Positions 1,341 to 61,962 of a stretch of DNA of 64,000 bases are shown here, one piece after another. The first letter of the stretch is position 1. Every line of letters starts with the position of its first letter. A model generated the notes under the pieces. The model was not told the DNA's origin. It did no database searches and saw nothing but the letters and a program-made list of their open reading frames with translations. Both the position numbers and the translations under genes were made by a program. This DNA comes from a virus. Its lineage: Duplodnaviria > Heunggongvirae > Uroviricota > Caudoviricetes. The stretch is taken from positions 298,764 through 362,763 of IMG/VR virus record IMGVR_UViG_3300029288_000055; one strand, 5' to 3'.

Positions 1341-2645
1341 ATGCCTTTTGATGTAACATTATTCAAACATTATTCGTATAATTGCATAGAAATGCATAAA
1401 CAAATAGATATTAATAGTATTAACCAACACAAATTTGAAATGAAAAAAATTAACATTCAGGCAGTTAAGATCGGTAACATGATAAATGTTTCAATTGATG
1501 GTAAATTAAATAAAAAGAATTGCAAATCAGCCGATGAAGCTAATACACTCTTTAAAGCTATTCTGAAAGCTAAAGAGAATCCGAATGAAGCAAACATTAA
1601 GGCATTTAAAATTCTTCTTAGTGAAAAATTAAGAATAGCCACTATCGCAGGTCTTGAAAGTGACCCACAAACTGGTGAGATTTTTCTTTGTGGTTTTAAT
1701 ACCCCAATCCCACAGGCATTGGTTGATGTCATTGAAGACTATGCAAAGAACAAGTATCCTATGGATGCTCTCATTAACTTTTGGAAACTCCTGATGATCA
1801 ATCCTGACAAGAGAATTCGTGAAAAATTATTCGATTTCATTAAAATTCATGATTTTTCAATTACAGATGCGGGTTACATGGTGGTTTATAAAGCTGTTGA
1901 TTATAAAGATGATGAACAACGTGACAAGACATTCGAAACCTTCATTTCAAACCAAGTACTCCATGTTAAAAAGGATTGGAAGTGCTCGCCTAAAAAATAT
2001 GCTGTCTATAAAAATCTTGAAAATGACGAGTATGGTATTGCCAAAGTTGAAGTCGTTTCAAATTGGGATGAGAGAGCAAAGAACATTGAAATTCTTGGTA
2101 ACCTTGATGAACTATTCAAAGCAATATTTGAAAATGATTACCCTGTAAATGATCTTGAGCATACAAAATCGGTTGTTTATACTGATATTCACAGTCATTC
2201 GATGATCATTGTACTTGGTAAACCTGTATATATGGAAAGAAAAGAATGTGATGGTGACCCGTCACTTGATTGTTCAATTGGATTACATTGCGGAAGTACA
2301 GATTATGTTAATCATTTTGCAAATGGTTGTGATGCAGTTCTTGTTTGTTATGTAAGTCCTGCAAATGTAATTTCAGTACCTTCATCTGAAACTTCAAAAA
2401 TTAGAGTTTCCGAATATTTTCCTGTCGGAGTTGCCACATATGAAAGTGGTAAAATAGACATAATCGAACAGAAATATTTTGAAGATGCTTATTGTGCTTA
2501 CGAGTTAGAAGAACTCAATGTAATGATTGAAAGGGTTAAGGCAGAAGAATTTCCTCTGGAAACAGCTAAGAAAGCAAAAGCTGAATCAAGACCAATGTCC
2601 GAGCTTAAGAAAATTTTGGAAACAAGACTCATAGATATCGAATAA
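1341..2645 (+). CDS. hypothetical protein (434 aa)
   Basis: Long ORF, followed by a terminator hairpin. No recognisable motif. Confidence 0.65.
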   Translation: MPFDVTLFKHYSYNCIEMHKQIDINSINQHKFEMKKINIQAVKIGNMINVSIDGKLNKKNCKSADEANTLFKAILKAKENPNEANIKAFKILLSEKLRIATIAGLESDPQTGEIFLCGFNTPIPQALVDVIEDYAKNKYPMDALINFWKLLMINPDKRIREKLFDFIKIHDFSITDAGYMVVYKAVDYKDDEQRDKTFETFISNQVLHVKKDWKCSPKKYAVYKNLENDEYGIAKVEVVSNWDERAKNIEILGNLDELFKAIFENDYPVNDLEHTKSVVYTDIHSHSMIIVLGKPVYMERKECDGDPSLDCSIGLHCGSTDYVNHFANGCDAVLVCYVSPANVISVPSSETSKIRVSEYFPVGVATYESGKIDIIEQKYFEDAYCAYELEELNVMIERVKAEEFPLETAKKAKAESRPMSELKKILETRLIDIE

Positions 2646-2994: not shown

Positions 2995-3384
2995 ATGAAA
3001 AATTTAGTGTCACTTGTTTCTCCAATTTTAGCATTTGTTGTAATGATCTGTTCAGTAAGCTTTATTATTGCAATTGCTTCTCCTTTTTTAACTGAAAAGG
3101 ATATGAAAAAGTATGTCTTGGCTCATAAAGACATGATCAAAAAAGAAGGTAATATCTTAAAAATCCCAAGCACTGATTTTAAGTATTATACTGACATTAC
3201 ATTAAGACTTCTTGATACTAATGATAGCACATACCAAATAGTGTTTTGGGGTGACAGAGATAGTAAACTATGGGATTTTAAACTGGATAAACCTATCACA
3301 GTTACTATCCCATATAACAGATATAAAAATAAAAACGTTAATCTGGACGTAAAGGTATTTGAATTAATTAATAATTTTAAATAA
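2995..3384 (+). CDS. hypothetical protein with an N-terminal TM helix or signal peptide (129 aa)
   Basis: ORF track. Hydrophobic N-terminus LVSLVSPILAFVVMICSVSFIIAIA. Confidence 0.5.
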   Translation: MKNLVSLVSPILAFVVMICSVSFIIAIASPFLTEKDMKKYVLAHKDMIKKEGNILKIPSTDFKYYTDITLRLLDTNDSTYQIVFWGDRDSKLWDFKLDKPITVTIPYNRYKNKNVNLDVKVFELINNFK

Positions 3385-3391
3385 AAATATC

Positions 3392-3907
3392 ATGAAAAAA
3401 GAATGGCGAATTGGTAAGTTAGTAATTGGCAATCCATTTGGATTCTGTTGGCATATTATGTCTCTTATAAGTCTTATTGTTATTGTTGTGGGTGCATGTA
3501 CCATAAAGAAAACAGATGAAAGCACAATTGACCCTAAAGATCAATTTTATCGCAATTTTGATATGATAATTGTTAATATCAATGGTGCTGATACATATAT
3601 TGGTGGTTCAAGTACTTCGGTTAGTGACAGAGATAATCAGCAAACACAAAGTTGTAATGTTATCCTGCTTGAAACCACATACAGGTTTGAAGAAAAATAT
3701 GGTGTACATCATATGTACAGAGAGATCAACACTTGTAAAGACCCGACAGTTACTGAGGATACTAATGGGTGTGGTTGTGGACAAGGATTTCACATTGATA
3801 CTAAATGGCTTTACAATCATAAAGCAGGAGACGAAGTACACTTTGATTACATGCTTAAAAGAAAATTCTTTGAAAGCGAATTGCTCGATGCAAAAAGAAA
3901 TAAGTAA
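3392..3907 (+). CDS. hypothetical membrane-anchored protein (171 aa)
   Basis: ORF track. TM segment SLISLIVIVVGACTI. The stop codon abuts the TTGTAAC motif. Confidence 0.55.
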   Translation: MKKEWRIGKLVIGNPFGFCWHIMSLISLIVIVVGACTIKKTDESTIDPKDQFYRNFDMIIVNINGADTYIGGSSTSVSDRDNQQTQSCNVILLETTYRFEEKYGVHHMYREINTCKDPTVTEDTNGCGCGQGFHIDTKWLYNHKAGDEVHFDYMLKRKFFESELLDAKRNK

Positions 3908-3939
3908 TTGTAACCATATCTTGTCAATTTCCGTATAAG
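3908..3939 (+). promoter_or_regulatory. promoter-like motif TTGTAAC-N17-CGTATAAG
   Basis: TTGTAAC at 3908-3914 and CGTATAAG at 3932-3939. It sits 27 nt upstream of the ATG at 3967. Confidence 0.55.
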
Positions 3940-3966
3940 CATTATGTCTAACTAAAAATAATTATC

Positions 3967-4470
3967 ATGTTTAAAAAATCGGAAGAAAACGGTGAAGTGA
4001 AAGAAAATACAGGAAAACTAATAATGGGTTTAGCTGTTGTTTCTTTTTTGTTTTTTGTGAGTTACGATGTTATAACACATACTAACGGAAAAAAATTGGG
4101 CGAACCAGTTTCTATTCAGAAATACAATACTTTAGAGAAACGCATGAACTATCTTTACTATGAAAACATTGTAAAAAATCAAATACTTTATGATCTGGTG
4201 GTTACAAAGAAATTGGATTCTTCATTTGTATTTTTAGTGTCTGAGCATGTACCTTTGTTTATATTAAATTCTAAAGACAAAAATGTACTACCTGATAGTT
4301 TACCTGATAAAAGACTATTGGCATTGAAATTAAATGCTGTATGCGCTGACTGGTACGAAAGCATACCCTTTATGTTCATGGATGCAAAACATGATAGCGC
4401 ATGGGTGTTAAAGTCTGATAGTTATAAGATTTCAATAGAAATGGCAACCAAATTAAGAACCAAACGATAA
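3967..4470 (+). CDS. hypothetical protein with an N-terminal TM helix (167 aa)
   Basis: ORF track. Confidence 0.55.
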   Translation: MFKKSEENGEVKENTGKLIMGLAVVSFLFFVSYDVITHTNGKKLGEPVSIQKYNTLEKRMNYLYYENIVKNQILYDLVVTKKLDSSFVFLVSEHVPLFILNSKDKNVLPDSLPDKRLLALKLNAVCADWYESIPFMFMDAKHDSAWVLKSDSYKISIEMATKLRTKR

Positions 4471-4928
4471 TGATCGATAAACTCACGAACGCAATTTTTA
4501 CTGACCTGCTTTATGTAGGTACAAAGAAACCAATGGGATATCTCCCACTTTACACAATTGAGCAGTATGGTGGTGAGGGTGCATTAACTCAATTGATTCA
4601 TTGGACTAAAAATAATAATTATAATTGCAGATGTTGGGATGAACAGTTTTGTAGCATTCTTTCTGGTGCTTTATATGTTTGGGATGAATTAATGCTTGGA
4701 GAAGTACTTAATAAGTATAAAGATATTCTCATTGAGTCTGAAATTCCAATTGAACCAGAAGAATTTGTTAACTATATTGTAAAAAATACAGTTCTTTCAG
4801 AGGTAAATCTTCCTGTACATATCATTATAGGATATGCTTATAATGACAAACGTTTCAGAGGCAAGACACTTGAAGAAAATATTGCGATACGTGAGAAAGA
4901 CTCCGCATATGTAAAAATTAATAAATAA
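4470..4928 (+). CDS. hypothetical protein (152 aa)
   Basis: ORF track. ATGA-type overlap with the upstream gene. Confidence 0.55.
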   Translation: MIDKLTNAIFTDLLYVGTKKPMGYLPLYTIEQYGGEGALTQLIHWTKNNNYNCRCWDEQFCSILSGALYVWDELMLGEVLNKYKDILIESEIPIEPEEFVNYIVKNTVLSEVNLPVHIIIGYAYNDKRFRGKTLEENIAIREKDSAYVKINK

Positions 4929-8621: not shown

Positions 8622-9125
8622 ATGAATACTACAACAAAAACAGATATTATTAAAACCGCAAAGAAAATTGAGTGTAAAGATTGTGGTAAAGGAATTGCTA
8701 TGTGCAATTTAAGACCTTGCTGGGGAACTGTTAAAGATTTTAAAAAAATCATCAAAGCAGGACATGCCAAAAAATTAATGATTGATTATTATTCCAATGA
8801 TAAAATAAATAATGGTGAAAAAATTTATTTTCTTTCGGGTGCAAGCAATCATAATCAATGTTCAAAAGCAGATTGGAATCCCAAAGGTACATGTATATTT
8901 CTTGTAAATAATAAATGTAATATTCATAATATTAAGCCAACTATGGGTGCTGTTATGTGTTGTAAAATTAAACAAGATAAAAGTTTAATGCATGCATGTT
9001 TAATGACATGGTTAACTAAAGAAGGTTTAAAATTAATTGAAGACTGGAAAAAAATGGTTAATTATGTAAATAAAGATGATGATGAAGGATTTAATCTTTA
9101 TGATGCAATGACGTTATTATTCTGA
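8622..9125 (+). CDS. hypothetical Cys-rich protein (167 aa)
   Basis: The track ORF at 8532 is probably N-extended. The ATG at 8622 gives MNTTTKTD... Contains CKDCGKGIAMCNLRPC. Confidence 0.5.
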   Translation: MNTTTKTDIIKTAKKIECKDCGKGIAMCNLRPCWGTVKDFKKIIKAGHAKKLMIDYYSNDKINNGEKIYFLSGASNHNQCSKADWNPKGTCIFLVNNKCNIHNIKPTMGAVMCCKIKQDKSLMHACLMTWLTKEGLKLIEDWKKMVNYVNKDDDEGFNLYDAMTLLF

Positions 9126-9145
9126 TTTTAAATAATAAAAAATTT

Positions 9146-9511
9146 ATGAAAATACATACATCTATAACATTGCCGGTTGTTAACATTAAACTTTTAATCA
9201 TTGAAGTTGATGATAATAAAGTTAAAAATAGTTTTGACAACAGGTTTCAATTAGCTGTTGAATTCAGAGGCAAAAGATTTTTTCCAAAAAACAAACAAAA
9301 ATTTTTGCAATTCGAAGATAATAATTACCTTTATACCATGTTAACAAACAAACTTGGCACAGAAACTTATCTTAATTCTGAACTTTTTTTCAGCTTAAAG
9401 CTGTGCGACAGATTGTTAGAAGATGTTAATACAGAAGCAATGCATTATATATCATTATATAATCAAGGTACTGATCTCAAGAAAGAACTTAAGAAAACCT
9501 ATAAATTTTAA
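9146..9511 (+). CDS. hypothetical protein (121 aa)
   Basis: ORF track. Confidence 0.5.
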   Translation: MKIHTSITLPVVNIKLLIIEVDDNKVKNSFDNRFQLAVEFRGKRFFPKNKQKFLQFEDNNYLYTMLTNKLGTETYLNSELFFSLKLCDRLLEDVNTEAMHYISLYNQGTDLKKELKKTYKF

Positions 9512-9512
9512 G

Positions 9513-9764
9513 ATGAGCAGACAAACAGTATATCACGATAACAGATTAACCGTAGTTACTGGCATTGATCATGCAATAGGTCAATTCTTTCAGATATATG
9601 ATAAGGAAATGGAAGGCGAAACTCTTGATGGTGAGGGATTAGTTTTAGACTGGTCGGAGTTATTCGGCTTTGAAACAAACCTTACTGGATATTGTCCCAA
9701 ATTAGGTGTACAGGCAATAATATATCAGTATATTGAAGAACATGATGAAGAAGATATTAACTAA
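9513..9764 (+). CDS. hypothetical acidic protein (83 aa)
   Basis: In-frame ATG of the track ORF 9423..9764 (MSRQTVYHDN...), directly after the upstream stop. Confidence 0.5.
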   Translation: MSRQTVYHDNRLTVVTGIDHAIGQFFQIYDKEMEGETLDGEGLVLDWSELFGFETNLTGYCPKLGVQAIIYQYIEEHDEEDIN

Positions 9765-9780
9765 TTTTAAATAAAAGCAT

Positions 9781-10227
9781 ATGATAAAGTACGTAATCGG
9801 TGATGCAACAAATCCAATTGGCGAAGGTGAAAAATATATTTTACATTGCTGTAATGATAAAAATAAATGGGGTGCAGGATTCGTTCTTGCTCTTTCTAAA
9901 CGTTGGAAAAAACCTGAAAAAATGTATCGTGCAGAAACTAAATATATTCTTGGTACAGTTCATATTGTGCGGGTTGAAAAAGACATTTGTGTTATTAATA
10001 TGATTGCACAGCATGATATTAAACCTGATGCTAATGGTGTGTCTCCAATTCGTTATGATGCTCTTAGAGAATGCTTAATATTCATAAATGAAATTGCTGT
10101 TGGAACAGGAGCAACTATACACGCACCGAGATTTGGGGCGGGTCTTGCAGGGGGAGATTGGAATAGAATCGAACAAATCATTAAAGAGACTATAACAGTT
10201 GATGTAACAATATATGATCTTAAATAA
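9781..10227 (+). CDS. macro domain protein of the TARG1/OARD1 (C6orf130-like) family
   Basis: GDATNP...LHCCNDKNKWGAGFVLAL, HAPRFGAGLAGGDW and the C-terminal VDVTIYDL align with TARG1 blocks (GDLF...AHCISEDCRMGAGIA / MPRIGCGLDRL...ITVYTL). Confidence 0.7.
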   Translation: MIKYVIGDATNPIGEGEKYILHCCNDKNKWGAGFVLALSKRWKKPEKMYRAETKYILGTVHIVRVEKDICVINMIAQHDIKPDANGVSPIRYDALRECLIFINEIAVGTGATIHAPRFGAGLAGGDWNRIEQIIKETITVDVTIYDLK

Positions 10228-10233
10228 AAATAT

Positions 10234-10587
10234 ATGATAACTAACAATCCTCATTACATAATGTACGGACATTTTAGGACTGCAAAAGCTAAAGACGGAA
10301 ATGAATATCCATACTTCAATAACATTTATAATCATCCATTTAGTACAGAAATGTGCGGAAATGAAAAAATATACCATCTAACTTTTGAACCTCACATAAA
10401 TCAAGAAAGAGATAAAGAAGAAGTTGAATATTGGGGTTGGTTAGATAATGATAGTGAATTATCAATGGTATATGCAAACTACCTTCTTTTTGATATGTGC
10501 TTTCCTAATGGTGCAGAAGCAACAGAAGCATTCGGACGAGGTAAAAGAATTAAATTGGAATTAACTAACTTTAAAGATAATTATTAA
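10234..10587 (+). CDS. hypothetical protein (117 aa)
   Basis: ORF track. Confidence 0.5.
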   Translation: MITNNPHYIMYGHFRTAKAKDGNEYPYFNNIYNHPFSTEMCGNEKIYHLTFEPHINQERDKEEVEYWGWLDNDSELSMVYANYLLFDMCFPNGAEATEAFGRGKRIKLELTNFKDNY

Positions 10588-10604
10588 CTAAAAATAATAA
10601 ATTT

Positions 10605-10961
10605 ATGAATATAATCAATGTAAATGGGAAAAATTTTGATGTTGTTGGACGAAATATAGTAGTTCGCAATGGTAAAGTAATTGTCGATGGTATTGAAGTT
10701 GTAGGTGATCTTAAAAATGAAATAAAAGTTACCTTTACAGGTGATTTGGCTAATTTAGATTGTACTGAAGCTGTTATAAATGGCAATGTACAAAAAATAG
10801 ATGCCACAACAATAACAATAAATGGCAATGTTACAGGTGATGTGGATGGCACAAACATAGTATGTGGTGATGTTGGCGGTAATGTTGAGGGCACAAATGT
10901 TAAATGCTGGGAGGTCAAAGGTGATATAGATGCAGTCACTTTTAAAAAAAGAAAAGAATAA
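10605..10961 (+). CDS. bactofilin-like beta-helical repeat protein (118 aa)
   Basis: Tandem repeats INGNV.K.D / V.GDV.G.N / VEGTNV typical of the bactofilin (DUF583/CcmA) fold. Confidence 0.5.
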   Translation: MNIINVNGKNFDVVGRNIVVRNGKVIVDGIEVVGDLKNEIKVTFTGDLANLDCTEAVINGNVQKIDATTITINGNVTGDVDGTNIVCGDVGGNVEGTNVKCWEVKGDIDAVTFKKRKE

Positions 10962-11002
10962 CAATAAAAATAATATGATGAAAAGTTAAATTATTACTAC
11001 TT

Positions 11003-27233: not shown

Positions 27234-27543
27234 CAGGACTAATTTTTATTAATTCATTACGATATATTGAAGCAAGAACATTTAACATTAATGAGCATAC
27301 TTTTTTATTTCTGAAATTAAGACTTATATCTTTTTTTGTTTTTTCAAGTAATAATTGTAAATAAAAACATTTTAGGTTTTTTTCCATACAACTAAGTGCT
27401 TTCATTCTTACATTGAATCTGTGGAAATAAACACTAACATTTTGCGTTAGACTTTCTTCACAAATTTCTGTGAGATAATCAGCTAAATAATTTGCAGCAC
27501 GATTTTCTGCATAAGTCCATGTAGTTGGGTCTACTTTTTTCAT
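27217..27543 (-). CDS. hypothetical protein (108 aa)
   Basis: ORF track. Confidence 0.5.
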
Positions 27544-27860
27544 TAGTATAAATTTTCACTAATTAAAAAATCGTCTGAACTTTCTTTGCCATAAACTATT
27601 TGATCATTTGCTTTTGCAATTTTCCATGCTTCTATTCTGTTCACAAATCTATTATGACTGGTAAGGAAACCCTGTTTGTCACGTCCCGGTAAACCATCAT
27701 CGAGATCAAGTGTTACAAATACTGGTGATTGGTCAATTACTTCATGAATTGTTTTACGCATTACTTCAAGAACTTTATAACAATCACTGTGTCTGTATCC
27801 TGCAACGATAACACCATTATAATCAAGAGCAGCACATAATATATATTCTGGTTTTTCCAT
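27543..27860 (-). CDS. hypothetical protein, paralogue 1 (105 aa)
   Basis: Shares the ILC(A/S)A...GHRHS(D/Q)C...QGFLTS(H/K)NRFV(N/D)R.EA and ...SE(N/D)LY* blocks with 28337..28675. Confidence 0.55.
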   Translation of the reverse strand: MEKPEYILCAALDYNGVIVAGYRHSDCYKVLEVMRKTIHEVIDQSPVFVTLDLDDGLPGRDKQGFLTSHNRFVNRIEAWKIAKANDQIVYGKESSDDFLISENLY

Positions 27861-28183: not shown

Positions 28184-28365
28184 AGTTGCGGACCGTTATA
28201 CCATTTCGTTTCATCCCTGATTGGCTGATGACAACATTTACATCTTTTACCATCTTCGATTTCAGGTTCAATTACTTTGGCTCTGAATATAGAACCAATA
28301 TTTCTGATTGTTCGTCTCTCTTTAGTCATATCTCGTTTAGTATAAATCTTCACTGAATAATCCAA
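28135..28365 (-). CDS. Zn-finger protein (76 aa)
   Basis: CKCCHQ...CQGC. Confidence 0.45.
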   Translation of the reverse strand: MDYSVKIYTKRDMTKERRTIRNIGSIFRAKVIEPEIEDGKRCKCCHQPIRDETKWYNGPQLCQGCKDAMEYGIAWH

Positions 28366-28675
28366 TTAACGGATTGTCTAAGTTTTTTTCATTTACCTGA
28401 CCTGCAAATAATGCAATTTCCAATGCTTTTTTTCTATCAACAAATCTATTCTTGCTCGTTAAAAATCCTTGTACATATTCACCGACTTCTGGCAATGCAC
28501 TTCTAAGTCCAGTAATACTACACATAGTATACATACATTGAGAATGGCGATGACCACAAAATACCAATCCTTTATCACAATTAATTGGTAATACATTAGA
28601 ATCAAAGATGTGTTTCAGTATTAAATCTTTATACCATATAGCACTACACAAGATGTATTCAAATTTACTTTTCAT
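28337..28675 (-). CDS. hypothetical protein, paralogue 2 (112 aa)
   Basis: See 27543..27860. Confidence 0.55.
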   Translation of the reverse strand: MKSKFEYILCSAIWYKDLILKHIFDSNVLPINCDKGLVFCGHRHSQCMYTMCSITGLRSALPEVGEYVQGFLTSKNRFVDRKKALEIALFAGQVNEKNLDNPLIGLFSEDLY

Positions 28676-31414: not shown

Positions 31415-31854
31415 AATATATATTTTCCTGTTTTGTTTTTATTTATTATTATTTTTGCTGCCACCTGTAAACCAACCTCTAAAGCTTCTTCATAAGTTTT
31501 GAACCCTTCAAAGATAGTCTTTCCCAAGTAATTATTCATACTTTTAGTCTTATTTTTTCTTTCGACCATATAAAAGTAACCATTTCCACTGGAACATCCA
31601 AATGTTCTATAATTTACTTCAACAAGTAAATTATGTTTTACTCTGAACCATTTCTTTAAAAGACTTTGTGTAGGGGCAGGATAATAAATACCATCATAAG
31701 TAAGATCAAGATTTCTTGTACCATCTTCATGATAAGGAAGTGTGGTACTAAGCCAGTCATTTGTCCTGCCTTTGAAAGTGAAACTTGCTTTATGTGCAAG
31801 TTTCGATGTAGCAAAAGATATAATATCTTCTTTAAGGTCTGGTTTAACTTTCAT
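31411..31854 (-). CDS. hypothetical protein (about 147 aa)
   Basis: The track ORF 31411..31998 overlaps the upstream gene by 155 nt. The internal Met (MKVKPDLKED...) at 31854 is the likelier start. Confidence 0.4.
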   Translation of the reverse strand: MKVKPDLKEDIISFATSKLAHKASFTFKGRTNDWLSTTLPYHEDGTRNLDLTYDGIYYPAPTQSLLKKWFRVKHNLLVEVNYRTFGCSSGNGYFYMVERKNKTKSMNNYLGKTIFEGFKTYEEALEVGLQVAAKIIINKNKTGKYIL

Positions 31855-32617
31855 CACTTTTACCAATTGTAAACATTGCTGGGTTGACAACACCTGTAGA
31901 ATTTTCTGCACCCCATTCTTTATTATGCCACTTGCGGAGTGCTTCACCGTGTTTCCAACTATGAACAAGTATTGACACTGCCATACCATACATTGCACCT
32001 GTAATACCCATGAAATCTACTTGTTTGCTGCAATTTTCTGCATGAGCAATCATACAGGTAACATCAGGATTTTCAATATTTTTGTCTGCAAATTCTTTTT
32101 GTAAAAGTTTTGCCCAACCTTCAGCATATTCAAAACATGCAAGACCATAACCATCACCTTTTTGAACAGCTTTCCAGTCATCATACTTTTTTTGATCAAG
32201 AATTTCAATTTCAATACCTTTGACCTTTTCTTCAAACAGTTTGCGTTCTTCGTCTTCTTTTGCCCTGTATGCTGCTGATTCAATTTTTTGCTTTTCTTCT
32301 TGTGCTTTTTCACGTTTGTCAAGTTCTACCAGAACTTCGGGTTCATATTGTGCGTAGCATTCAGGACCGACCTGTCGCCACTCCATGATATGAGCATTCT
32401 GATAGTCTCTTTCGAGCCATTCGAGATTGGTGTCTTTATTTACCAAACACTTAATACTGTTGAAATCAAATACAACTATGGTATTATCAATATTAAGTTT
32501 TGTGTTTCTGTAAAGCACAGTTTCTCTTGCTCTTTCAGCTACTTTTGGAAACCAGTCACCACAACAGGTACTAATTGTAATTGTTTGGTTTTTATTAACA
32601 ATTTTTTTCTTTTTCAT
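31844..32617 (-). CDS. hypothetical protein (257 aa)
   Basis: ORF track. Confidence 0.6.
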   Translation of the reverse strand: MKKKKIVNKNQTITISTCCGDWFPKVAERARETVLYRNTKLNIDNTIVVFDFNSIKCLVNKDTNLEWLERDYQNAHIMEWRQVGPECYAQYEPEVLVELDKREKAQEEKQKIESAAYRAKEDEERKLFEEKVKGIEIEILDQKKYDDWKAVQKGDGYGLACFEYAEGWAKLLQKEFADKNIENPDVTCMIAHAENCSKQVDFMGITGAMYGMAVSILVHSWKHGEALRKWHNKEWGAENSTGVVNPAMFTIGKSDES

Positions 32618-37965: not shown

Positions 37966-39147
37966 TTAAGTGAACTGCTTATTTGTTAAAAACAAATGTG
38001 CTTCAGAAGTCAACACTCCAACCATTGTTGGCAGTTCGTTCTGAGTTTGAGTATCCATTCCAGATACATAATTTCTTAAAGCAAAATTCTTAATGTTAAT
38101 TGCTGCATTAATATCACGATCATGAATTGTGTTGCAATTTTTACAAGTCCAAACTCTATCTTTAAGTTCTAATTCTTTATTAATTGTGCCACAAACATTA
38201 CAGGTTTTTGAACTTGATTCAAATCTACCGATTTGTATAATGTTTTTGCCCTGCCATTCTGCTTTGTATTTTAGCATATCAATAAACATGCCCCAACCAA
38301 CATCAATTATTGATTGTGCCAAAGAATGATTTTGTAACATACCATTAATATTAAGATTTTCAATAGCAATAGATTGATTCTCTCCAATTAGCTTAGTTGA
38401 AATCTTATTTAAGAAGTCTTTTCGTTGATTACCTATTTTTTCATGTAAAATAGTTAATTTATGTTTTGTTCGTTTACCTTTATATTTTGAATATTTACTT
38501 TGTATGTATTTAAGTCTTGATTGTACTATTCGTAAAAATTTTGGATTTTCAAATACTTCACCTTTGGAAGTTACGAGAAATGATTTAATTCCCAAATCAA
38601 TACCAGTAGTATTATCGTTTTCAATATTTATTTTATTTGGCAATATAATGTTATTTTCAACCAATATTGATATAAAATATTTATTTGTTGGTGTTTTAAT
38701 TATTGTAGCTTGTTTAATTGTTCCTTTAAAATTTCTATGTAAAACAATATTAATACCTTTTCTGAACTTAGGTATAATAATTTTATTTGTATTGAAATTG
38801 ACAACAATATTTTGTTGTATATTAAATGATTGTTTTGCTGTTTTCTTTTTAAATTTAGGAAAATCGCCCTGTCCTTTAAAAAATTTTGTAAAGGCATTAT
38901 CCAGATGTGTTATTGCTTGTTGTAAAGATTGTGAATTTATTTCTTTAAGCCATTCACATTCCTTCTTTAGTTCAGGAAGTTGTTTGATCAAATCAAAGCA
39001 ATTTAAATTAATTTTATTTCCAGCATATGCAGTTTGTTTTGTTTCAAGAGCTAAATTATATACAAAACGACAACTGCCAATATGTTTGTTTATTAGTTCT
39101 ATTTGTTGTTTAGTAGGATATATTCTATATTTGTATGTTTTTAACAT
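37966..39147 (-). CDS. tnpB: IS200/IS605-family TnpB (OrfB) RNA-guided RuvC nuclease
   Basis: N-terminal MLKTYKYRIYPTKQQ...CRFVYN (OrfB_IS605). RuvC-I in GIDLGIK, RuvC-II in IAIENLNI, a zinc finger CNVCG...CKNCN and RuvC-III in HDRDINAAINI. The D-E-D triad is intact. Confidence 0.85.
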   Translation of the reverse strand: MLKTYKYRIYPTKQQIELINKHIGSCRFVYNLALETKQTAYAGNKINLNCFDLIKQLPELKKECEWLKEINSQSLQQAITHLDNAFTKFFKGQGDFPKFKKKTAKQSFNIQQNIVVNFNTNKIIIPKFRKGINIVLHRNFKGTIKQATIIKTPTNKYFISILVENNIILPNKINIENDNTTGIDLGIKSFLVTSKGEVFENPKFLRIVQSRLKYIQSKYSKYKGKRTKHKLTILHEKIGNQRKDFLNKISTKLIGENQSIAIENLNINGMLQNHSLAQSIIDVGWGMFIDMLKYKAEWQGKNIIQIGRFESSSKTCNVCGTINKELELKDRVWTCKNCNTIHDRDINAAINIKNFALRNYVSGMDTQTQNELPTMVGVLTSEAHLFLTNKQFT

Positions 39148-41629: not shown

Positions 41630-42205
41630 TTATAAATATAATAAACAACAGTGTTTATATTTTTTTCCTGAATTGCAAGGACAAGGTTCATTTCGACCAA
41701 CATCAATTGGTTTTGGTGGCACAAATGAAAGGTCTTCAATACGTTCCTCAATACCATTAAGATGATTAATCTCATGTTGCCAGACTTGTGCTTCAAAACC
41801 TTTAACAAATTCTCGATTTTTAACACCTACTTCATCATAATAATCAACAATTATTGCACGATTACGTTCAGCAACAATTCTTTTGCCTTTCCATGTTAAA
41901 CAACCTTCAACTTTAATTTCTTTAATACCAACATATTCAATAATATATGGGTCAATTATTAATCGCCAATTTGCTTGTGGATTTCCATTGATATTTATTT
42001 CTCTTAATGCAAACACTCTCAGCATAAATCTTTCAGTATCAAGACTGGTTTGATTTGCAGCCAGACCTACTGCATCAAATCTGGTAAATGAATAATCTTT
42101 GAATGCTTGTAATTGTTTAATGTTTTGAATAAAAAACAATTCAATGTTTTCAACATCTGGGACTCTGGGAGTCTGTTGGTTTGGTATTACTTCAAATACA
42201 TTCAT
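41630..42205 (-). CDS. def: peptide deformylase with a C-terminal SEC-C motif
   Basis: The three PDF motifs are present: GLAANQ, EGCLT and QHEINHL. The C-terminus has PCPCNSGKKYKHCC (SEC-C). Confidence 0.8.
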   Translation of the reverse strand: MNVFEVIPNQQTPRVPDVENIELFFIQNIKQLQAFKDYSFTRFDAVGLAANQTSLDTERFMLRVFALREININGNPQANWRLIIDPYIIEYVGIKEIKVEGCLTWKGKRIVAERNRAIIVDYYDEVGVKNREFVKGFEAQVWQHEINHLNGIEERIEDLSFVPPKPIDVGRNEPCPCNSGKKYKHCCLLYL

Positions 42206-44449: not shown

Positions 44450-44480
44450 TTATACGATATTTTTGTGAAAAAGTTACACT
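44450..44480 (-). promoter_or_regulatory. promoter-like motif GTGTAAC-N16-CGTATAAT (minus-sense)
   Basis: The + strand reads ATTATACG-N16-GTTACAC. The upstream gene's stop is inside the box. Confidence 0.45.
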
Positions 44481-45529
44481 TTTTCAATTAATTCATTCTT
44501 GATAATTTTATTTGTGCTCCAGTGACCATGATTATTCTGTACGTGATTTTTCCGTACAAATTTGCCACACACATTGCGAAATTCAGCGTAATGAAATTCT
44601 CTTGCAAGTCTGACCACATAACCTTCCATAGTATCAGAAGTTGCTTTCACCTTTTTATTGAGATTTTCGATCACCTTCATATCCCAAATACCTTTATATA
44701 AAACAGGCATAAGTGTAAGTCCAAGTAGTTGTGCCCATTCTTCAGTTTCGTGCCAACTCAGACAAATGTTTTTTTCATTCCAGATACTGAACATATAGAA
44801 ATATGTACTGAGTGCATTCCCTTTTTCTTTTCTATAATGAATAGCATGTTTGGCATACATATTTTCACCACAAACTCGCCAGCCTTCAGGTATTTCATAA
44901 CCTACTTGTGCCCAAAGACTTTTAACCCAATTACGTGAAGGATGTGAACCACTGTCAAGAGATCGGGCATGTGTGTATGTTTTACCAAAAGTTGTGTTTT
45001 CACCATCAAGTTTTTCACCGATTATAACTTCTTCCTCTTCAAAAACTTCAACATTAGTCATCATACGATCATCCCTGTTCATACCTTCTGACCAAGGCAA
45101 ATGATATGTTCTTGGATATTTAACCATATCAGTGAATAATCCAAGTACATTACCTTGTTTCAAAATTTTTTGTACCGATTCATCTTCGAATAATTCACCT
45201 TTGAGTCTTGTGCCGTTTTTCTGTATTTCATTTCCCCATTTATCATATTCTGCATCTTGATAGAAATGATCTGGCATTATTATTTTGGTTATACCAGCAG
45301 CTTTACGAATTTCTTCGCAACTAAGTGTTGTTTCTTCTGCTTGAATATGGTGCTTACTACATAAACTTGCACCATTATTGATGAAGTATCCCTGAGTAGT
45401 ACCAAACAAGCGTCTTTCGACTATATGGTGAGCGTCTTGTGCTTGTTCATGGCATATAATACATTTAAATCCGTCTCTTTTGAAAACGGATTCTCTGAAG
45501 GTATCTCTATCTAATAATATCTCTTCCAT
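44474..45529 (-). CDS. HNH endonuclease fused to an Rnl2-like RNA ligase (nucleotidyltransferase)
   Basis: N-terminal CIICHEQAQDAHHIVER...N...CSKHH is an HNH motif. The ligase motifs are KYPRTYHL, motif I KLDGEN, motif III VCGENMYAKH, motif IV EGYVVRL and motif V KFVRK. Confidence 0.6.
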   Translation of the reverse strand: MEEILLDRDTFRESVFKRDGFKCIICHEQAQDAHHIVERRLFGTTQGYFINNGASLCSKHHIQAEETTLSCEEIRKAAGITKIIMPDHFYQDAEYDKWGNEIQKNGTRLKGELFEDESVQKILKQGNVLGLFTDMVKYPRTYHLPWSEGMNRDDRMMTNVEVFEEEEVIIGEKLDGENTTFGKTYTHARSLDSGSHPSRNWVKSLWAQVGYEIPEGWRVCGENMYAKHAIHYRKEKGNALSTYFYMFSIWNEKNICLSWHETEEWAQLLGLTLMPVLYKGIWDMKVIENLNKKVKATSDTMEGYVVRLAREFHYAEFRNVCGKFVRKNHVQNNHGHWSTNKIIKNELIEKV

Positions 45530-55983: not shown

Positions 55984-56475
55984 TTATATACTATTTTTGT
56001 GAAATTCTATTGCACCATCAAGATTAGCCATTAAAACATCACTATCAAGTTTTGAAAAATGATCTACATGATTCAATTTTATAACAACACCTTTCTTGGA
56101 ATTTTTTATAATATTTTTTACGTTTTCAAAATCATCGTAATCTGTCTGGTATACACCAACAGCAATTGTCATAAGATTTTCAGGTACATTAATTTCAATT
56201 GGATGATTATTTTTCTTCTTTTTTCTTGGTACTAAAATAGTATATTTTGGATTGACAATATTTTTATCCACATCGTATGTGAATTTAAAATCAAATATAA
56301 AACGTACTTTATTTAATGGTATCTGGTGAAGTGAAAGCAGTTCTTTAGCTGCTTTAATTTGTTGCTTTTCTATTTCAGTTAATTCTTCACTGTTAACAAT
56401 AACAGTATCAAAGTTCGGTGGAGTTTGAACTTCAACAATTTTAAAAAATGGAAATTTACGAATTAATTGTAACAT
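55984..56475 (-). CDS. hypothetical protein (163 aa)
   Basis: ORF track. Confidence 0.55.
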   Translation of the reverse strand: MLQLIRKFPFFKIVEVQTPPNFDTVIVNSEELTEIEKQQIKAAKELLSLHQIPLNKVRFIFDFKFTYDVDKNIVNPKYTILVPRKKKKNNHPIEINVPENLMTIAVGVYQTDYDDFENVKNIIKNSKKGVVIKLNHVDHFSKLDSDVLMANLDGAIEFHKNSI

Positions 56476-57029
56476 TATCTTATATGTTCAAGAAACCAAT
56501 TATAACATTTTTGAGTTTTATCACCAGTTTCGTTATCACAACGATAGAACTTGGCATATAAATCAACAATACCTTCCATTAATAAACCATCAATAAGTCT
56601 TATTACACGATTTTCTGCAGTAGTCCAATCACCATCTCTATCGCCTTTTGACCATGCATTATATGCATCATCATGACGTTGAATGATTTGCAAAATATCT
56701 TGATCTGCAGGTATGAATTTCTCAGTAAATTTTCGAGCTATCATACCATGATGATTTTCACCAGATTTTGGCATTGATCTATCAACTTTATGTTTGAAAG
56801 TATCATGCACCATTGCAATTAAACGCAACGCTTTTCTTTCGTCTTCAGTTTCAGCATATTGATCAATGTTTGCAAGCACTTCTTTGATATGGTAAATTAC
56901 CTGACCTTCTTTATGTCCGGGTCTTGGTTTACCATAATAACAACCAGTAATAAAATCTTTGTTATTACAAATTACAGTTTCAATTTCATTTTCTGGATTG
57001 ATTATTGAAACTATTTCGTTCTTATTCAT
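56475..57029 (-). CDS. putative HD-domain phosphohydrolase
   Basis: H..HD pattern in AMVHDTFKH, followed by NHHG and RHDDAYN. Confidence 0.4.
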   Translation of the reverse strand: MNKNEIVSIINPENEIETVICNNKDFITGCYYGKPRPGHKEGQVIYHIKEVLANIDQYAETEDERKALRLIAMVHDTFKHKVDRSMPKSGENHHGMIARKFTEKFIPADQDILQIIQRHDDAYNAWSKGDRDGDWTTAENRVIRLIDGLLMEGIVDLYAKFYRCDNETGDKTQKCYNWFLEHIR

Positions 57030-57030
57030 T

Positions 57031-57423
57031 TTATAATTTTATATTATTTATTAAACGTTCTTTCATTTTTACAATTGTTTCTTCAGGAACACCATGCGAA
57101 TTTTTATTTCCGTGTCTATTTTCAACTACAATAAAATATGTAATATAACTGAAATCTTCAGCCATATCAACATATGGTCGCATTATCCTTTCAGTAACAT
57201 TAGTGTTAGCAATAATAATTGGTGAAATGCCTTTTTGCATGAATCTTCTGCACTTACGTTCACACCATTCATGTGCTTCACCTATGTATCTGTAGTCCCA
57301 TGCATATATGCCTTTACGAGTATACCAATCATCTGCGGTACAAATTGCTTTTCCAAGTAATTTCGCAAATGTTGATTTACCTGAATTTGGTAATCCACGT
57401 ACTATAATTAATACTTTTTTCAT
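57031..57423 (-). CDS. small P-loop kinase (AAA_33 / polynucleotide-kinase-like)
   Basis: Walker A GLPNSGKST at the N-terminus. 130 aa. The ATG lies 6 nt after the promoter box. Confidence 0.5.
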   Translation of the reverse strand: MKKVLIIVRGLPNSGKSTFAKLLGKAICTADDWYTRKGIYAWDYRYIGEAHEWCERKCRRFMQKGISPIIIANTNVTERIMRPYVDMAEDFSYITYFIVVENRHGNKNSHGVPEETIVKMKERLINNIKL

Positions 57424-57678: not shown

Positions 57679-58206
57679 TTATTGACCTCCTAATTTTTCA
57701 CGAACTTCCATTAATGCTTTACCTAAAAGGTTCATACCTCTCCAGTTCTTTTCATCTAAAACTCTATCATCTTCCCAATGTAAGCCAATACCCCAGATTG
57801 TGTCGTATGGACTGGCTTCAACAATGATCTTATCTTCAGTAGAAAGTAAAATTGCTTTCAATCTTGAATTTTGACCAAACTTAGCAAGATTAACAGCGAT
57901 CATAATTTCATATCCTTCTCTTAACCATTTGTTTTTATCGAAATTTTTAACCTTACGACCTAATATTTTATTTTCTTTTGGATTTGGTGTTTCAACAATT
58001 TTTTTGGCAATTTCCATATCACCAAAAAAAATTGCTTTTTCCCACATAAATGCCTGTTCGCTGTTGAAAAATGTCAAACCTTTATATTTAATAAAAGGAA
58101 ATTTGCATTCAAACCAATTGGAGAATTCTCCGTTCCAAAAGAACACATATTTATCCGTTATTCTTTCCATCTTCTTCTTTATGTGTATATCTTGAATATG
58201 CTTCAC
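57679..58206 (-). CDS. NADAR domain protein (YbiA/DUF1768 family)
   Basis: FFWNGEFSNW, NSEQAFMWEKA, VEASPYDTIWGIG and GMNLLGKALMEVREKL align with the conserved blocks of E. coli YbiA. Confidence 0.75.
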   Translation of the reverse strand: MKHIQDIHIKKKMERITDKYVFFWNGEFSNWFECKFPFIKYKGLTFFNSEQAFMWEKAIFFGDMEIAKKIVETPNPKENKILGRKVKNFDKNKWLREGYEIMIAVNLAKFGQNSRLKAILLSTEDKIIVEASPYDTIWGIGLHWEDDRVLDEKNWRGMNLLGKALMEVREKLGGQ

Positions 58207-58554: not shown

Positions 58555-61116
58555 TTAATAATCAATCTTTGTAGTAAGAACCGTTGCTGTCATCGAAGGT
58601 CTTGTCAAAGCAACATATTTTATTTGATTTCTTTCTTTTAAAACCCAATTATCGTTAATATCATTTTCAAGCACAAACACATGTGTGTATGTTGAACCTT
58701 GTGATTTATGACCAGTAATAGCATAACCATAATCAAAATCTTTTGCAATTATTTCACTCTTTGGTCTATACAAACCGTTTCTATATTTATCAATAGTCAC
58801 CATTATCATACTACCACGTCTAAAATCATAATATTTTGTCCATAATTTTTTATTGGCTTTAGCCATATCACGGTACATATCATGCATTTCTGCATATTTG
58901 TGCAAATTATCGTGATCAATATGATTAATTATAAACACATCCTGAAGTTTATGTTTACCATGTGCAAGGTCTTCTTTTATTTTAATCATATAACCCTTCA
59001 AATTATATGCATTTTCTGACAAATCAGATTTTTCAAGAACAGTATAATCTGCAGAATTTTCAATTATATTATAGTTCTGTTTATCGTTCATAATGCTGCG
59101 ATATCCCATCAGGAGATCGCCAATCTCAATAATATCCGTTTTTTCACCAAATAAAGCCTTTCTAATGACCATATTTGATGCCATGACGGTTTCATTGCGC
59201 CAACAAATAACTTTCGCAAAATCACTGTCTTCCCTGAATTCAGGTGATTGAAATTTATCAAGAATTGCAGTCCGAAATTCACGTTTATCAACTGTAAATA
59301 TTACTCCTTCACCCAATTCATTCATAACTGACTTTCTTAAGAAACCACCATCAAGACGATTAAGGTTATTTCTAAGTGCATCATAAACAAATGCAAGTGG
59401 ATTGGTATCATTTTGTCTTTCGATTTTTGTAAGCCAATGACTTTCATGTGTACCCTGAGTAAAGACTGCACTTTCTTTTTCACCAACTGGTGGGATTTGT
59501 GCAGGGTCACCCATATATAAAACATTGGTACGAGTATCTTTTGTTTTTTCAATAACTAAATTAAATAATTCTTGATTGATCATTGAGGCTTCATCAATAA
59601 TAACCCAATTATAATCAGATATTCTTGGTATTGCAATCGGATTAAACTTAGGGTCATTAGGATTAAATTCATCCAAATTAACATCTGGTCTTAATCCAAG
59701 CAATCCATGAAGTGTTTGACCATCCATGCCAGTAGTATTCATAACAACTTTTTTGGCTTTATGTGTTGGAGCACTTACCACAACACCATAACGATAAGTA
59801 TCAAGTACTTTTTTTATAATTGTAGAATTGTGTGTAACAGTAAAATTATCGGTAAGATATAGATTATCTTTAGCATCAACCATTATACATTTTTGTTCAA
59901 CGTTTTTTATGTATTCAATTTTAGAAATATATCGTGGAGTTCTATATTTACTTTTATTTACTACTAAATTTTGTTTTCTATTTAATGAAAATACCTTAAA
60001 ATTATTTGTTTGATTGATACTTATAATATAACATCCTTGAAATGAATTAGGTCTATAATTAATTTTTGTTACACATCCTAATGACTGAGCTAATTCGCAA
60101 ATATCATTAGCAAGTTTAAATGAAACGGTTGCATATGAAATATAACAACCATTTTTATCAATAGTTCCATCGGTATCCATTAATCCTTGTAATATTGCAA
60201 TTCTATCATTAATTGAAGAATATTTATATATTTCAGGTATGAATTTTTTTTCTGATTTAACAGTAACTTTTAATTCTTGTAAGTCATGATATAATTTATT
60301 TTTATTTCCTTTTTTACCTGAAATAGAATATCCAATAGTGTTTGAAATCTGTTTAAGAAATAAATTATCATAATTATGATTAACAATTTTTTCGATTTTC
60401 ATTATTATTTCATTATCAATTGAAGTAAACCTAACACTGCCTTGAGTTAATCCACCATCACCAAGTAATACTCCTAATAAATATGGGTCGATAGGCAATT
60501 CTTTTCTATTAAATTCTACTGCAGAATTTACTTGTATTTTATAATTAAATTGAACACTTCCATCATTTCTAATATAATAAACATTATCAATCATTTCTTT
60601 AGTTGATAAGATTGAATAATATTCTCTATATTTTTTAAATTTAAAAATAAATGTTCGTTGACGATTTCTGTCTTTAAATGTTTTTACTTTCCATAAATGA
60701 TCTTCACAGCAATCAACATAGAATTCATCAGAGAAAGTAACTCTATACATTGGCTTAATTCCTTGTGGAAATACATTTAGTACTTTAGTTGGTTTTCCAT
60801 CACTACCCATAACCAAATCACCAATTTTTACATCATCCATTGTAATATATCCATTTGGTGTATATAATTTAGAATATAATGGTTGTGCCTTTCCTGTACC
60901 TGCATAACCTGCTAATGTAAAAAATTTTGAATCTCTTTTTTTAAGCCATTGTTTAATTTTTACCAGACCATCAAATTGTTCGGTATTAAACGTAATTATT
61001 TTACCAGTAAGTAATTGTAATTGATTTTCACCAAGATTTTCTCTCACTTGTTTTTGCGCAAAATCATTAAATAATTGCTTAAGTATTTCCTTATTTTCTT
61101 CCATTTGCCCTTTCAA
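58555..61116 (-). CDS. Dda/RecD-like SF1B helicase precursor interrupted by an intein
   Basis: Walker A AGYAGTGK|...|STII is split by the intein. Helicase motifs downstream: VIIDEASM, GDPAQIPPV, ITGHKSQGST and YVALTR. Confidence 0.75.
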   Translation of the reverse strand: MKGQMEENKEILKQLFNDFAQKQVRENLGENQLQLLTGKIITFNTEQFDGLVKIKQWLKKRDSKFFTLAGYAGTGKAQPLYSKLYTPNGYITMDDVKIGDLVMGSDGKPTKVLNVFPQGIKPMYRVTFSDEFYVDCCEDHLWKVKTFKDRNRQRTFIFKFKKYREYYSILSTKEMIDNVYYIRNDGSVQFNYKIQVNSAVEFNRKELPIDPYLLGVLLGDGGLTQGSVRFTSIDNEIIMKIEKIVNHNYDNLFLKQISNTIGYSISGKKGNKNKLYHDLQELKVTVKSEKKFIPEIYKYSSINDRIAILQGLMDTDGTIDKNGCYISYATVSFKLANDICELAQSLGCVTKINYRPNSFQGCYIISINQTNNFKVFSLNRKQNLVVNKSKYRTPRYISKIEYIKNVEQKCIMVDAKDNLYLTDNFTVTHNSTIIKKVLDTYRYGVVVSAPTHKAKKVVMNTTGMDGQTLHGLLGLRPDVNLDEFNPNDPKFNPIAIPRISDYNWVIIDEASMINQELFNLVIEKTKDTRTNVLYMGDPAQIPPVGEKESAVFTQGTHESHWLTKIERQNDTNPLAFVYDALRNNLNRLDGGFLRKSVMNELGEGVIFTVDKREFRTAILDKFQSPEFREDSDFAKVICWRNETVMASNMVIRKALFGEKTDIIEIGDLLMGYRSIMNDKQNYNIIENSADYTVLEKSDLSENAYNLKGYMIKIKEDLAHGKHKLQDVFIINHIDHDNLHKYAEMHDMYRDMAKANKKLWTKYYDFRRGSMIMVTIDKYRNGLYRPKSEIIAKDFDYGYAITGHKSQGSTYTHVFVLENDINDNWVLKERNQIKYVALTRPSMTATVLTTKIDY
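59827..60888 (-). mobile_element. intein (354 aa, Ala-1 type) with a LAGLIDADG homing endonuclease
   Basis: Hint N-block AQPLYSKLYTPNGYITMDDVKIGDLV, LAGLIDADG motifs LLGVLLGDGG and LQGLMDTDG, C-terminal ...FTVTHN followed by Ser +1. The DNA is very AT-rich relative to the exteins. Confidence 0.7.
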
Positions 61117-61357
61117 GTATTTTAAGAAGTTTTTTCAAATCTTTTAAATTACAAATTTTGGATTCTGGAATTTCGTATAATTCTACCACATAGCTACTAT
61201 TAACTTTTTCGTCATTACTACACGAAATCAATAAACATTTTTCAGTAATTTCATACGTATAATAATGATATCCATAATCTTCAGGGTCTAATGTGGGTAA
61301 TTCTACTTGTTTTTTAAAGCCTAATTTTCGCAAATCTTTTCCAGTAATTTTTTTCAT
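61091..61357 (-). CDS. hypothetical protein (88 aa)
   Basis: ORF track. Confidence 0.5.
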   Translation of the reverse strand: MKKITGKDLRKLGFKKQVELPTLDPEDYGYHYYTYEITEKCLLISCSNDEKVNSSYVVELYEIPESKICNLKDLKKLLKILERANGRK

Positions 61358-61962
61358 TTTCTTTCAAAATTTTTATTAAAAAAACTCATAGCATCTTTAA
61401 TAGTATCATCGTGATGAAACGCCCACAGATAATCTCCATAGGTTGAATAAAAAATAATCATTTTCATCCACTTAACCATTGCGGTTTCTTTACTGGTAAA
61501 TGATTCTACAAATAAAGGAAATTTATTTATTTTATCAACAAAATTATATGCTGAAAGATATATTAATGCAATATTTTGATGTTTACTATTTGGGTCATCA
61601 TTAATACAAATTGGTTGTTTATTATTATCAAATATAAGTTGTTTCTCATAGTCTGGAAGATAAAGTGAAGTTTCTTCATAAACCTCTCTAATCATAGCTT
61701 CATGAGTAGTTTCATTATAGTCTAAATATCCACAAGGTACACCATATTTACTTGCTTCATTAAGCATTTTGTTTGATCTTTTTGTAATAAGGACATATAG
61801 TCCATCACCTTTATTGACAAATACAACACCGACTACCGCTATTGATCTACTAATCCAATAATCTTGGTCTATTTTGAGACCACACCCATCATTGAAATGA
61901 TATCTTAAATGGTAATTTGGTCTGTTTTTAAATAGTTTTACTTCATACTTATTTTCGTTCAT
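61354..61962 (-). CDS. Nudix hydrolase
   Basis: Nudix box G-YLDYN-E-TTHEAMI-REVYEETS fits Gx5Ex7REUxEExGU, with S in place of G. Confidence 0.65.
   Translation of the reverse strand: MNENKYEVKLFKNRPNYHLRYHFNDGCGLKIDQDYWISRSIAVVGVVFVNKGDGLYVLITKRSNKMLNEASKYGVPCGYLDYNETTHEAMIREVYEETSLYLPDYEKQLIFDNNKQPICINDDPNSKHQNIALIYLSAYNFVDKINKFPLFVESFTSKETAMVKWMKMIIFYSTYGDYLWAFHHDDTIKDAMSFFNKNFERK

Follow-up and report, generated by a model that had tools for sequence, protein, structure and literature searches.

An uncultured jumbo phage with a genome of ~363 kb (30% GC) carries two small genes whose products, a macrodomain protein and a NADAR protein, are probably counter-defense enzymes that resemble antitoxins without a toxin. 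We analyzed a 64-kb stretch of this genome, referred to here as the window. The macrodomain gene occupies 9781..10227 on the plus strand and encodes a stand-alone, single-domain protein of 148 aa. The NADAR gene occupies 57679..58170 on the minus strand and encodes a stand-alone protein of 163 aa. The macrodomain protein would act on ADP-ribose (ADPr) attached to thymidine N3, and the NADAR protein on ADPr attached to guanine N2. The original prediction, made from the DNA letters, had also cast both as reversers of DNA ADP-ribosylation. Much of that view stands: both genes are intact orphans, their families reverse thymidine- and guanine-linked ADP-ribosylation, and their nearest characterized relatives, SCO6735 and a Phytophthora protein (PnNADAR), do so. 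For these two proteins the analysis shows intact genes, the fold, the subfamily, conserved catalytic residues, that both are orphans, and a lineage-conserved pairing. We infer the substrates, and DarT-like defense as the selective pressure.

The macrodomain gene was found where it had been placed, with all of the quoted sequence blocks present. It had been described as TARG1-type. That description holds for the ALC1-like class as a whole, because the protein has the three-layer alpha/beta/alpha fold with an ADP-ribose cleft formed from Gly-rich loops, but it is wrong for family and mechanism. The phmmer match to TARG1 is weak (E 0.066). In a MAFFT alignment, the catalytic Lys84 of TARG1 falls on Gln77, and its catalytic Asp125 (in the GCGLD loop) falls on Ala123 (in GAGLAGG). 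In the TARG1 sequence used for this alignment, K84 and D125 fall at their published positions. Identities in the alignment were 53% to BT1257 of Bacteroides thetaiotaomicron, 48% to SCO6735 of Streptomyces coelicolor, 45% to a homolog in the Streptomyces phage Faust, 28% to T-even Tk.4, and 24% to TARG1. These comparisons make it an SCO6735/BT1257-type Gln enzyme, by sequence, and not a TARG1-type one. A Pfam-A search did not detect a macrodomain in 9781..10227, which is a gap in model sensitivity for this subgroup and does not count against the fold.

The SCO6735 subgroup lacks the lysine of TARG1 and DarG and relies on Gln85, held by Asn27; the SCO6735 Q85A mutant is dead (Hlousek-Kasun et al., PMC9411070). 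The same study described a mobile loop that exceeds those of TARG1 and DarG by ~5 residues. SCO6735 cleaved thymidine-linked ADP-ribose on single-stranded DNA (ssDNA) faster than DarG or TARG1, left guanine-ADPr untouched, and rescued both E. coli and S. coelicolor from DarT (PMC9411070). It was inactive on 5'-phosphate-ADPr and 2'-OH-ADPr RNA (PMC11833690). The Gln/Asn pair is present in the window protein as Q77 and N25, both invariant in 54 homologs. Other conserved positions are H22 (H24 in SCO6735), K81 (K89), G119 (G126), and G121 (G128). Across the 54 homologs H22, G119, G124, and G125 are also invariant. The long mobile loop is there too: QHDIKPDANGVSPIRY aligns with the loop of SCO6735 and BT1257, at a place where TARG1 and Tk.4 show a 6-residue gap.

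That the second gene encodes a clear NADAR domain was borne out by matches to PF08719 (E 1.5e-48; 165.6 bits versus a gathering threshold of 35.1) and TIGR02464 (2e-47). The PF08719 match covers profile positions 10 to 162 of 163 and residues 13 to 160 of the protein. The open reading frame (ORF) was originally given as 57679..58206 because the mechanical ORF reaches a GTG at 58206. Translation almost certainly begins with the ATG at 58170, since the NCBI gene call is 163 aa and the consensus of 43 homologs opens with MERITDKYVFFW, in which M1 is invariant. Among solved structures, the nearest is that of stand-alone PnNADAR (8bau; 4.7e-19); YbiA followed at 3e-7, and the DarG1 NADAR was not among the matches. 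PnNADAR hydrolyzes guanine-linked ADPr (G-ADPr), and its residues E43, K50, K75, R79, and E125 take part in ADPr binding or in catalysis of guanine de-ADP-ribosylation (Schuller et al., PMC11543638). We transferred these from the 8bau alignment, using the numbering of the 163-aa protein. The catalytic Glu and Lys correspond to E38 and K45, the diphosphate-binding residues to K68 and R72, and E125 to Glu118 in the motif VEASPYD. All are invariant in the 43 homologs, except for R72, which is nearly so. The window protein is thus of the Glu type, like the NADAR and YbiA families; T4-type phage NADARs have His at that position and DarG1 has Asp. Every NADAR family tried hydrolyzes guanine-ADPr on DNA and RNA, and none hydrolyzes phosphate-end ADPr (PMC11833690 for the phosphate ends). 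Glu-type families additionally hydrolyze cytidine-ADPr.

Neither gene has a toxin beside it, in agreement with the original prediction. A Pfam sweep of the ~100 ORFs in the window found no ADP-ribosyltransferase (ART), sirtuin (Sir2), DarT (DUF4433), KptA/Tpt1, Adps, or Namat. Because the window has no ART, Sir2, DarT, KptA, or NARP gene, orphan counter-defense is the best reading of the pair. We rejected a toxin-antitoxin pair, as there is no ART, DarT, or Sir2 gene nearby and the neighbors of the macrodomain gene are not conserved among relatives. This gene lies ~7 kb downstream of rIIB, among a series of very small genes. L001, a relative with an 85% identical protein, has the same arrangement, but the flanks differ in L008, where the identity is 70%. 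Therefore, the macrodomain gene has no conserved partner. In relatives, the NADAR gene belongs to a syntenic string that reads NUDIX, Dda helicase, NADAR, AAA_33 kinase-like, HD, DUF3307, and SPFH. In L004, homing-endonuclease insertions part the NADAR gene from the kinase/HD pair, which suggests that the string reflects lineage synteny and not an operon.

The two genes also travel together. Among nine IMG/VR contigs of at least 150 kb with a macrodomain at least 55% identical to that in the window, at least six carry a close NADAR, always ~28 to 37 kb from the macrodomain gene. At least seven IMG/VR contigs are common to the best 80 matches of each protein. These pairing counts are lower bounds, drawn from the best 80 matches and from seed patterns. 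On one record in INPHARED, that of Enterobacter phage FENT2, both genes are present. Using tblastn, we found macrodomain homologs in 1,351 INPHARED records. The nearest are in ~130-kb Streptomyces phages (41 to 49% identity), followed by hundreds of T4-like phages (gene tk.4), and then by Stephanstirmvirinae and other large myoviruses. The tk.4 genes of RB14 and T2 matched at E ~1e-7 with 28 to 30% identity. NADAR homologs were found in 793 INPHARED records, including Staphylococcus K-like, Listeria, Bacillus, Vibrio, Streptomyces, and Stephanstirmvirinae phages and uncultured huge phages; T4-like phages were absent from these matches at 1e-5. Cellular macrodomain homologs are at most 53% identical to the window protein and are scattered across Bacteroidota, Actinomycetota, and others. 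The viral and metagenomic clade has internal identities of 60 to 85%.

Product names in these records can mislead. In INPHARED, the macrodomain is called "phosphatase" and the NADAR "GTP cyclohydrolase II," "swarming motility protein," or "glycosylase." JGI names for homologs include "ribA/ribD-fused uncharacterized protein" and "O-acetyl-ADP-ribose deacetylase." A different arrangement was seen in Streptomyces phages of the Stanwilliamsviridae, in which an SCO6735-like macrodomain gene abuts a sirtuin gene stop to start, beside rIIA/rIIB. In Faust these are genes 156 and 157 (3321..4477 of locus L003), and the same pair is present in loci L039, L062, and L064. GenBank labels the sirtuin variously as "ADP-ribosyltransferase," "Sir2," or "hypothetical." Judged by its sequences, the pair looks like a phage-borne SirTM-macro writer/eraser pair.

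The source of the window needs comment, because in NCBI the identical proteins (MFA5207456.1 and MFA5207571.1) come from a contig of 362,763 bp that is labeled "MAG: Candidatus Paceibacterota bacterium." We rejected a Paceibacterota bacterium in view of rIIB, an intein-split Dda helicase, Tad4, and TnpB in the window, homing endonucleases in relatives, and IMG/VR relatives of 170 to 360 kb. On the basis of gene content and these relatives, we conclude that the source is a jumbo phage and not a cell, binned into a metagenome-assembled genome (MAG) of the candidate phyla radiation (CPR). This assignment rests on marker genes, none of which encodes a capsid protein or terminase; the 64-kb window has no capsid or terminase gene, and no tRNA gene or Rfam match. 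The close relatives are IMG/VR viral contigs of 170 to 360 kb, and the NADAR is present at 100% identity on one IMG/VR viral contig. A megablast of positions 8000 to 12000 gave no match in INPHARED, and there is therefore no close cultured relative. A second MAG contig labeled Paceibacterota (DATDXL010000011.1, L191) also carries the macrodomain, at 52% identity. The two contigs with this label may reflect a CPR host or only mis-binning.

If the favored reading is right, the two unlinked, stand-alone ADP-ribosyl glycohydrolases, produced from blocks of small genes, would serve as "orphan antitoxins." The macrodomain cleft would bind ADP-ribose, and Q77, held by N25, would position the distal ribose in place of the TARG1/DarG lysine. 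Water could then break the N-glycosidic bond that joins ADP-ribose to thymidine N3 in ssDNA. On replicating phage DNA, this would reverse modification of the DarT2 type. In the NADAR protein, K68 and R72 would contact the diphosphate, and E38, K45, and E118 would serve to take ADP-ribose off guanine N2. The substrate might be DNA or RNA, and possibly cytosine as well, so that DarT1- or pierisin-type modification would be undone. Both erasers together would keep phage DNA replicable under either class of toxin, as AdfM and AdfN do in T4.

Several points weigh against this reading, which draws on 64 kb of a 363-kb genome. SCO6735 K34, whose K34E substitution leaves the enzyme nearly dead on DNA, corresponds to Ala32 in the window protein. 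This concern is eased because Ala is the consensus of the phage clade there (WGAGF) and because TARG1 (Ala) and Tk.4 (Ser), both active on thymidine-linked ADPr, likewise have no Lys at this position. For the NADAR, the DNA-binding N-terminal extension of DarG1 is absent, and a protein of 163 aa has no room for it. Its best match in defense databases is the uncharacterized PADLOC system PDC-M42C (8.8e-40), and there was no DarG1 match. In addition, the T4 NADAR and YbiA cleaved G-ADPr in vitro but gave no rescue from DarT1 in cells (PMC11125620). Finally, soluble ADPr derivatives are the targets for which Iyer et al. (PMC9503650) argue in the case of most Macro and NADAR domains of phages, and at the level of fold the ADP-ribose-1''-phosphate (ADPR-1''-P) phosphatase Poa1p is as near to the window macrodomain as are DarG and TARG1.

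The NADAR also gave a weaker match (1.8e-15) to NCBIfam DS32_2, "NADAR family anti-phage protein." Together with the PDC-M42C match, this implies that bacterial relatives of the NADAR sit in uncharacterized candidate defense systems other than DarTG1. We entertain a more specific version of orphan counter-defense, as a tentative proposal. In it, phages would have captured a thymidine-ADPr DNA glycohydrolase three times independently: as the DarG2-like AdfM in chimalliviruses, as Tk.4 in T-even phages, and thirdly as the SCO6735-type Gln macrodomain in this jumbo-phage lineage. Rather than DarTG1, the Glu-type core NADAR, whose nearest defense relatives are PDC-M42C and DS-32 components and not DarG1, would neutralize an uncharacterized, NADAR-linked ADP-ribosylating defense, which may modify cytosine or RNA.

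The main rival to DNA repair is the use of soluble ADPr derivatives, rather than DNA adducts, as substrates. The macrodomain would then be an Adpp/Poa1p-like ADPR-1''-phosphate phosphatase acting against aRES-type NAD depletion, or would degrade an immune signal, and the NADAR and a NUDIX hydrolase would clear related small molecules. There is precedent in the phage macrodomain Adpp, which counters aRES as an ADPR-1''-P phosphatase resembling Poa1p, and the structure of Poa1p is close to that of the window protein. However, by sequence Poa1p matches weakly and over a short stretch (2.6e-5, residues 2 to 50 of the macrodomain), whereas similarity to SCO6735/BT1257 is ~30 to 40 orders of magnitude stronger. 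Neither the Gln/Asn pair specific to SCO6735 nor the long mobile loop shows any variation, and base-linked ADPr is the substrate of every NADAR tested. Also, Adpp is defined by its NARP1 (Adps-Namat) operon, and the macrodomain has no such context; its neighbors are small ORFs without a Pfam match. We regard soluble substrates as unlikely.

Less probable still is that the macrodomain, and perhaps the NADAR, erases marks made by a writer of the phage itself, a sirtuin or ART, thereby limiting self-damage or tuning the modification of host targets. The sirtuin beside the Faust homolog, annotated as ART or Sir2 and a sirtuin by its motifs, is the best argument for this, and the same pairing occurs in L039, L062, and L064 and probably in L044. 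T4-like phages also express ARTs early, alongside NADARs. Against it, only the Streptomyces-phage branch shows the pairing (four or five of the best 80 IMG/VR loci), the ~100 window ORFs include no Sir2 or ART domain, and the immediate neighbors of the macrodomain gene vary between close relatives.

We give very little weight to a role for both genes as RNA-repair accessories, clearing ADPr adducts or by-products of tRNA repair by RNA ligase and kinase/HD end-healing. De Souza, Aravind, and Iyer predicted a link of NADAR and Macro domains to RNA repair, the window encodes an RNA ligase (44474..45529), and the NADAR gene is followed immediately by AAA_33 kinase-like and HD genes, in an order that is syntenic in relatives. 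However, the ligase is 12 kb away, the L004 insertions separate NADAR from kinase/HD, and KptA/Tpt1, the would-be maker of the ADPr by-product, is absent from the window. In addition, SCO6735 has no activity on 5'-phosphate-ADPr or 2'-OH-ADPr RNA, nor do NADARs act on ADPr at phosphate ends (PMC11833690).

Least probable of all is that the NADAR is a YbiA-like housekeeping N-glycosidase for riboflavin-pathway intermediates and the macrodomain a generic O-acetyl-ADP-ribose deacetylase: the TIGR02464 score ("riboflavin biosynthesis intermediates N-glycosidase"; 161 bits versus a cut-off of 73.7) and the JGI names fit this, but those automatic names are inherited labels and not tests, the window has no riboflavin genes, PnNADAR is much nearer than YbiA, and YbiA itself hydrolyzes G-ADPr.

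The ~100 ORFs of the window are small and tightly packed in two divergent blocks, and GC skew agrees with strand. A rIIB-like protein (1341..2645, plus strand; PHROG 609, 1.2e-30) is a phage marker and heads the plus-strand block of small genes that holds the macrodomain; its orthologs in L001 and L008 match PF26926 (Phage_T4_rIIB). All of the remaining genes with coordinates here are on the minus strand. The NUDIX hydrolase (61354..61962; PF00293, 2.5e-9), with the Nudix box GYLDYNETTHEAMIREVYEE, is syntenic with the NADAR in relatives and is possibly another gene that processes NAD or ADPr derivatives. Between these two lies a Dda-like SF1 helicase with a LAGLIDADG intein (58555..61116; PHROG 325, 6.7e-71; AAA_30, LAGLIDADG_3, and Hom_end_hint), also a phage marker. 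The intein is ~350 aa and is near Walker A; the L004 and L006 orthologs are intein-free, at 472 to 497 aa. Downstream of the NADAR are the AAA_33 P-loop kinase-like gene (57031..57423; 1.3e-8) and the HD-domain gene (56475..57029; 3.1e-7), a pair (56475..57423) with a PHROG 2071 match of 8.5e-35. A 257-aa protein (31844..32617) matches the Tad4 domain at residues 138 to 252 (PF25186, 2.8e-25), and its N-terminal half has no match. It is likely an anti-Thoeris gene, an inhibitor of type I Thoeris, in the same block as the NADAR, and its presence suggests that this block holds further counter-defense functions.

Several observations concern neither enzyme. A full-length TnpB (37966..39147; HTH_OrfB_IS605, OrfB_IS605, and Cas12f1-like TNB; PHROG 506, 1e-119) has similar counterparts near the macrodomain gene in L008 and L009. 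The RNA ligase (PF09414, 5e-29; PHROG 24030, 2e-132) has an N-terminal ~70 aa with weak matches to HNH-endonuclease PHROGs. A peptide deformylase (41630..42205; PF01327, 1.4e-17) carries a C-terminal SEC-C zinc motif, and another SEC-C-motif protein is encoded among the plus-strand or early minus-strand genes. The window also encodes a radical-SAM protein. A paralogous pair of 105 and 112 aa (27543..27860 and 28337..28675) has no Pfam match and shares the motifs EYILC(A/S)A…, G(Y/H)RHS(D/Q)C…, and QGFLTS.NRFV.R.EA..IA. The region from 40.2 to 41.6 kb, which looked ORF-poor at first, is packed with minus-strand ORFs of 49 to 79 aa.

The original prediction implied novelty, and in this it does not hold up. 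The T4 NADAR gp30.3 (AdfN) clears ADPr from guanine and overcomes DarTG1 but not DarTG2, as do two unrelated NADARs from other phages (Johannesman et al., 2025, PMC11825919). A transposon screen of T4 identified tk.4, now named AdfM, as the single gene required on DarTG2 hosts (bioRxiv 10.1101/2025.11.20.689424). A DarG2-like chimallivirus macrodomain (gp104) likewise counters DarTG2 (PMC13309987), and Macro, NADAR, and Nudix domains were reported to co-occur in DNA-virus genomes above expectation (Iyer et al., 2022, PMC9503650). T4 has both AdfM and AdfN and so already embodies the idea of one phage armed against both DarT families. Because concept, enzymology, and pairing are all published, no new question is opened. 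What is left of interest is SCO6735-type chemistry in a phage, the conserved pairing in an uncultured jumbo-phage lineage, and a possible NADAR target other than DarTG1. Our literature search found no published test of a phage-borne SCO6735-type macrodomain. If the favored reading is true, counter-defense by DNA de-ADP-ribosylation would reach beyond T-even phages and chimalliviruses to uncultured environmental jumbo phages of 170–360 kb, and lysine-independent SCO6735-type chemistry would be at work in a virus. The conserved pairing would also imply that the hosts use both thymine- and guanine-directed ADP-ribosylating toxins. The two small genes would be candidates for letting therapeutic phages infect a broader range of DarTG-positive bacteria. 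For annotation transfer, the labels "phosphatase" (PHROG 335), "GTP cyclohydrolase II," and "ribA/ribD-fused" in >2,000 phage records are probably misleading.

Several known systems lie close to the two proteins. The macrodomain differs from human TARG1/OARD1 in its long mobile loop, and TARG1 acts on phosphate-end ADPr, whereas the SCO6735 type does not. SCO6735 and BT1257 are its closest match, but their genes are on bacterial chromosomes and this one is on a jumbo phage. It is not a DarG, the antitoxin of DarTG2. DarG models match it marginally (12.5 bits to NCBIfam NF048014, with a cut-off of 250, and 16 bits to PADLOC DarG), Gln replaces the Lys of Taq K80, the 148-aa single domain has no C-terminal DarT-binding domain, and Pfam sweeps found no darT beside it and no DUF4433 or ART gene anywhere in the window. 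Nor is the NADAR a DarG1, as it has 163 aa rather than ~230 aa and Glu instead of Asp, and there is no darT1 in the window. Adpp, the Poa1p-like macrodomain of NARP1-AP operons, is a phosphatase for a soluble nucleotide, whereas the window protein is a predicted DNA glycohydrolase. The chimallivirus AdfM (PhiKZ gp104) is likewise a jumbo-phage macrodomain and strips DarT2 ADP-ribose from DNA, but it is DarG2-like and of the Lys type (N23/K78) and is imported into the phage nucleus, whereas the window protein is of the Gln type, and no sign of a phage nucleus emerged from our analysis, which did not look for one. T4 Tk.4 (AdfM) is likewise a phage-encoded orphan macrodomain. It shares PHROG 335, the catalytic-position Gln, and the Asn with the window protein, and its genome also has a NADAR. 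However, Tk.4 is a distant relative with a short TARG1-like loop and a demonstrated DarTG2 phenotype, whereas the window protein is known from its sequence. The AdfN NADARs of T4 (gp30.3), Bas32, and Bas60 and the Phytophthora NADAR are, like the window NADAR, orphan and core-only, with the Glu/Lys pair and the diphosphate Lys/Arg. The window NADAR is no more than a possible ortholog of AdfN-Bas60 or of the T4 or Bas32 protein; the E. coli phage matches that we checked are Stephanstirmvirinae. By analogy with AdfM, we predict that the macrodomain protein is a thymidine-linked ADP-ribosyl-DNA glycohydrolase, and by analogy with AdfN, that the NADAR protein is a guanine-linked, and possibly also cytosine-linked, ADP-ribosyl nucleic-acid glycohydrolase.

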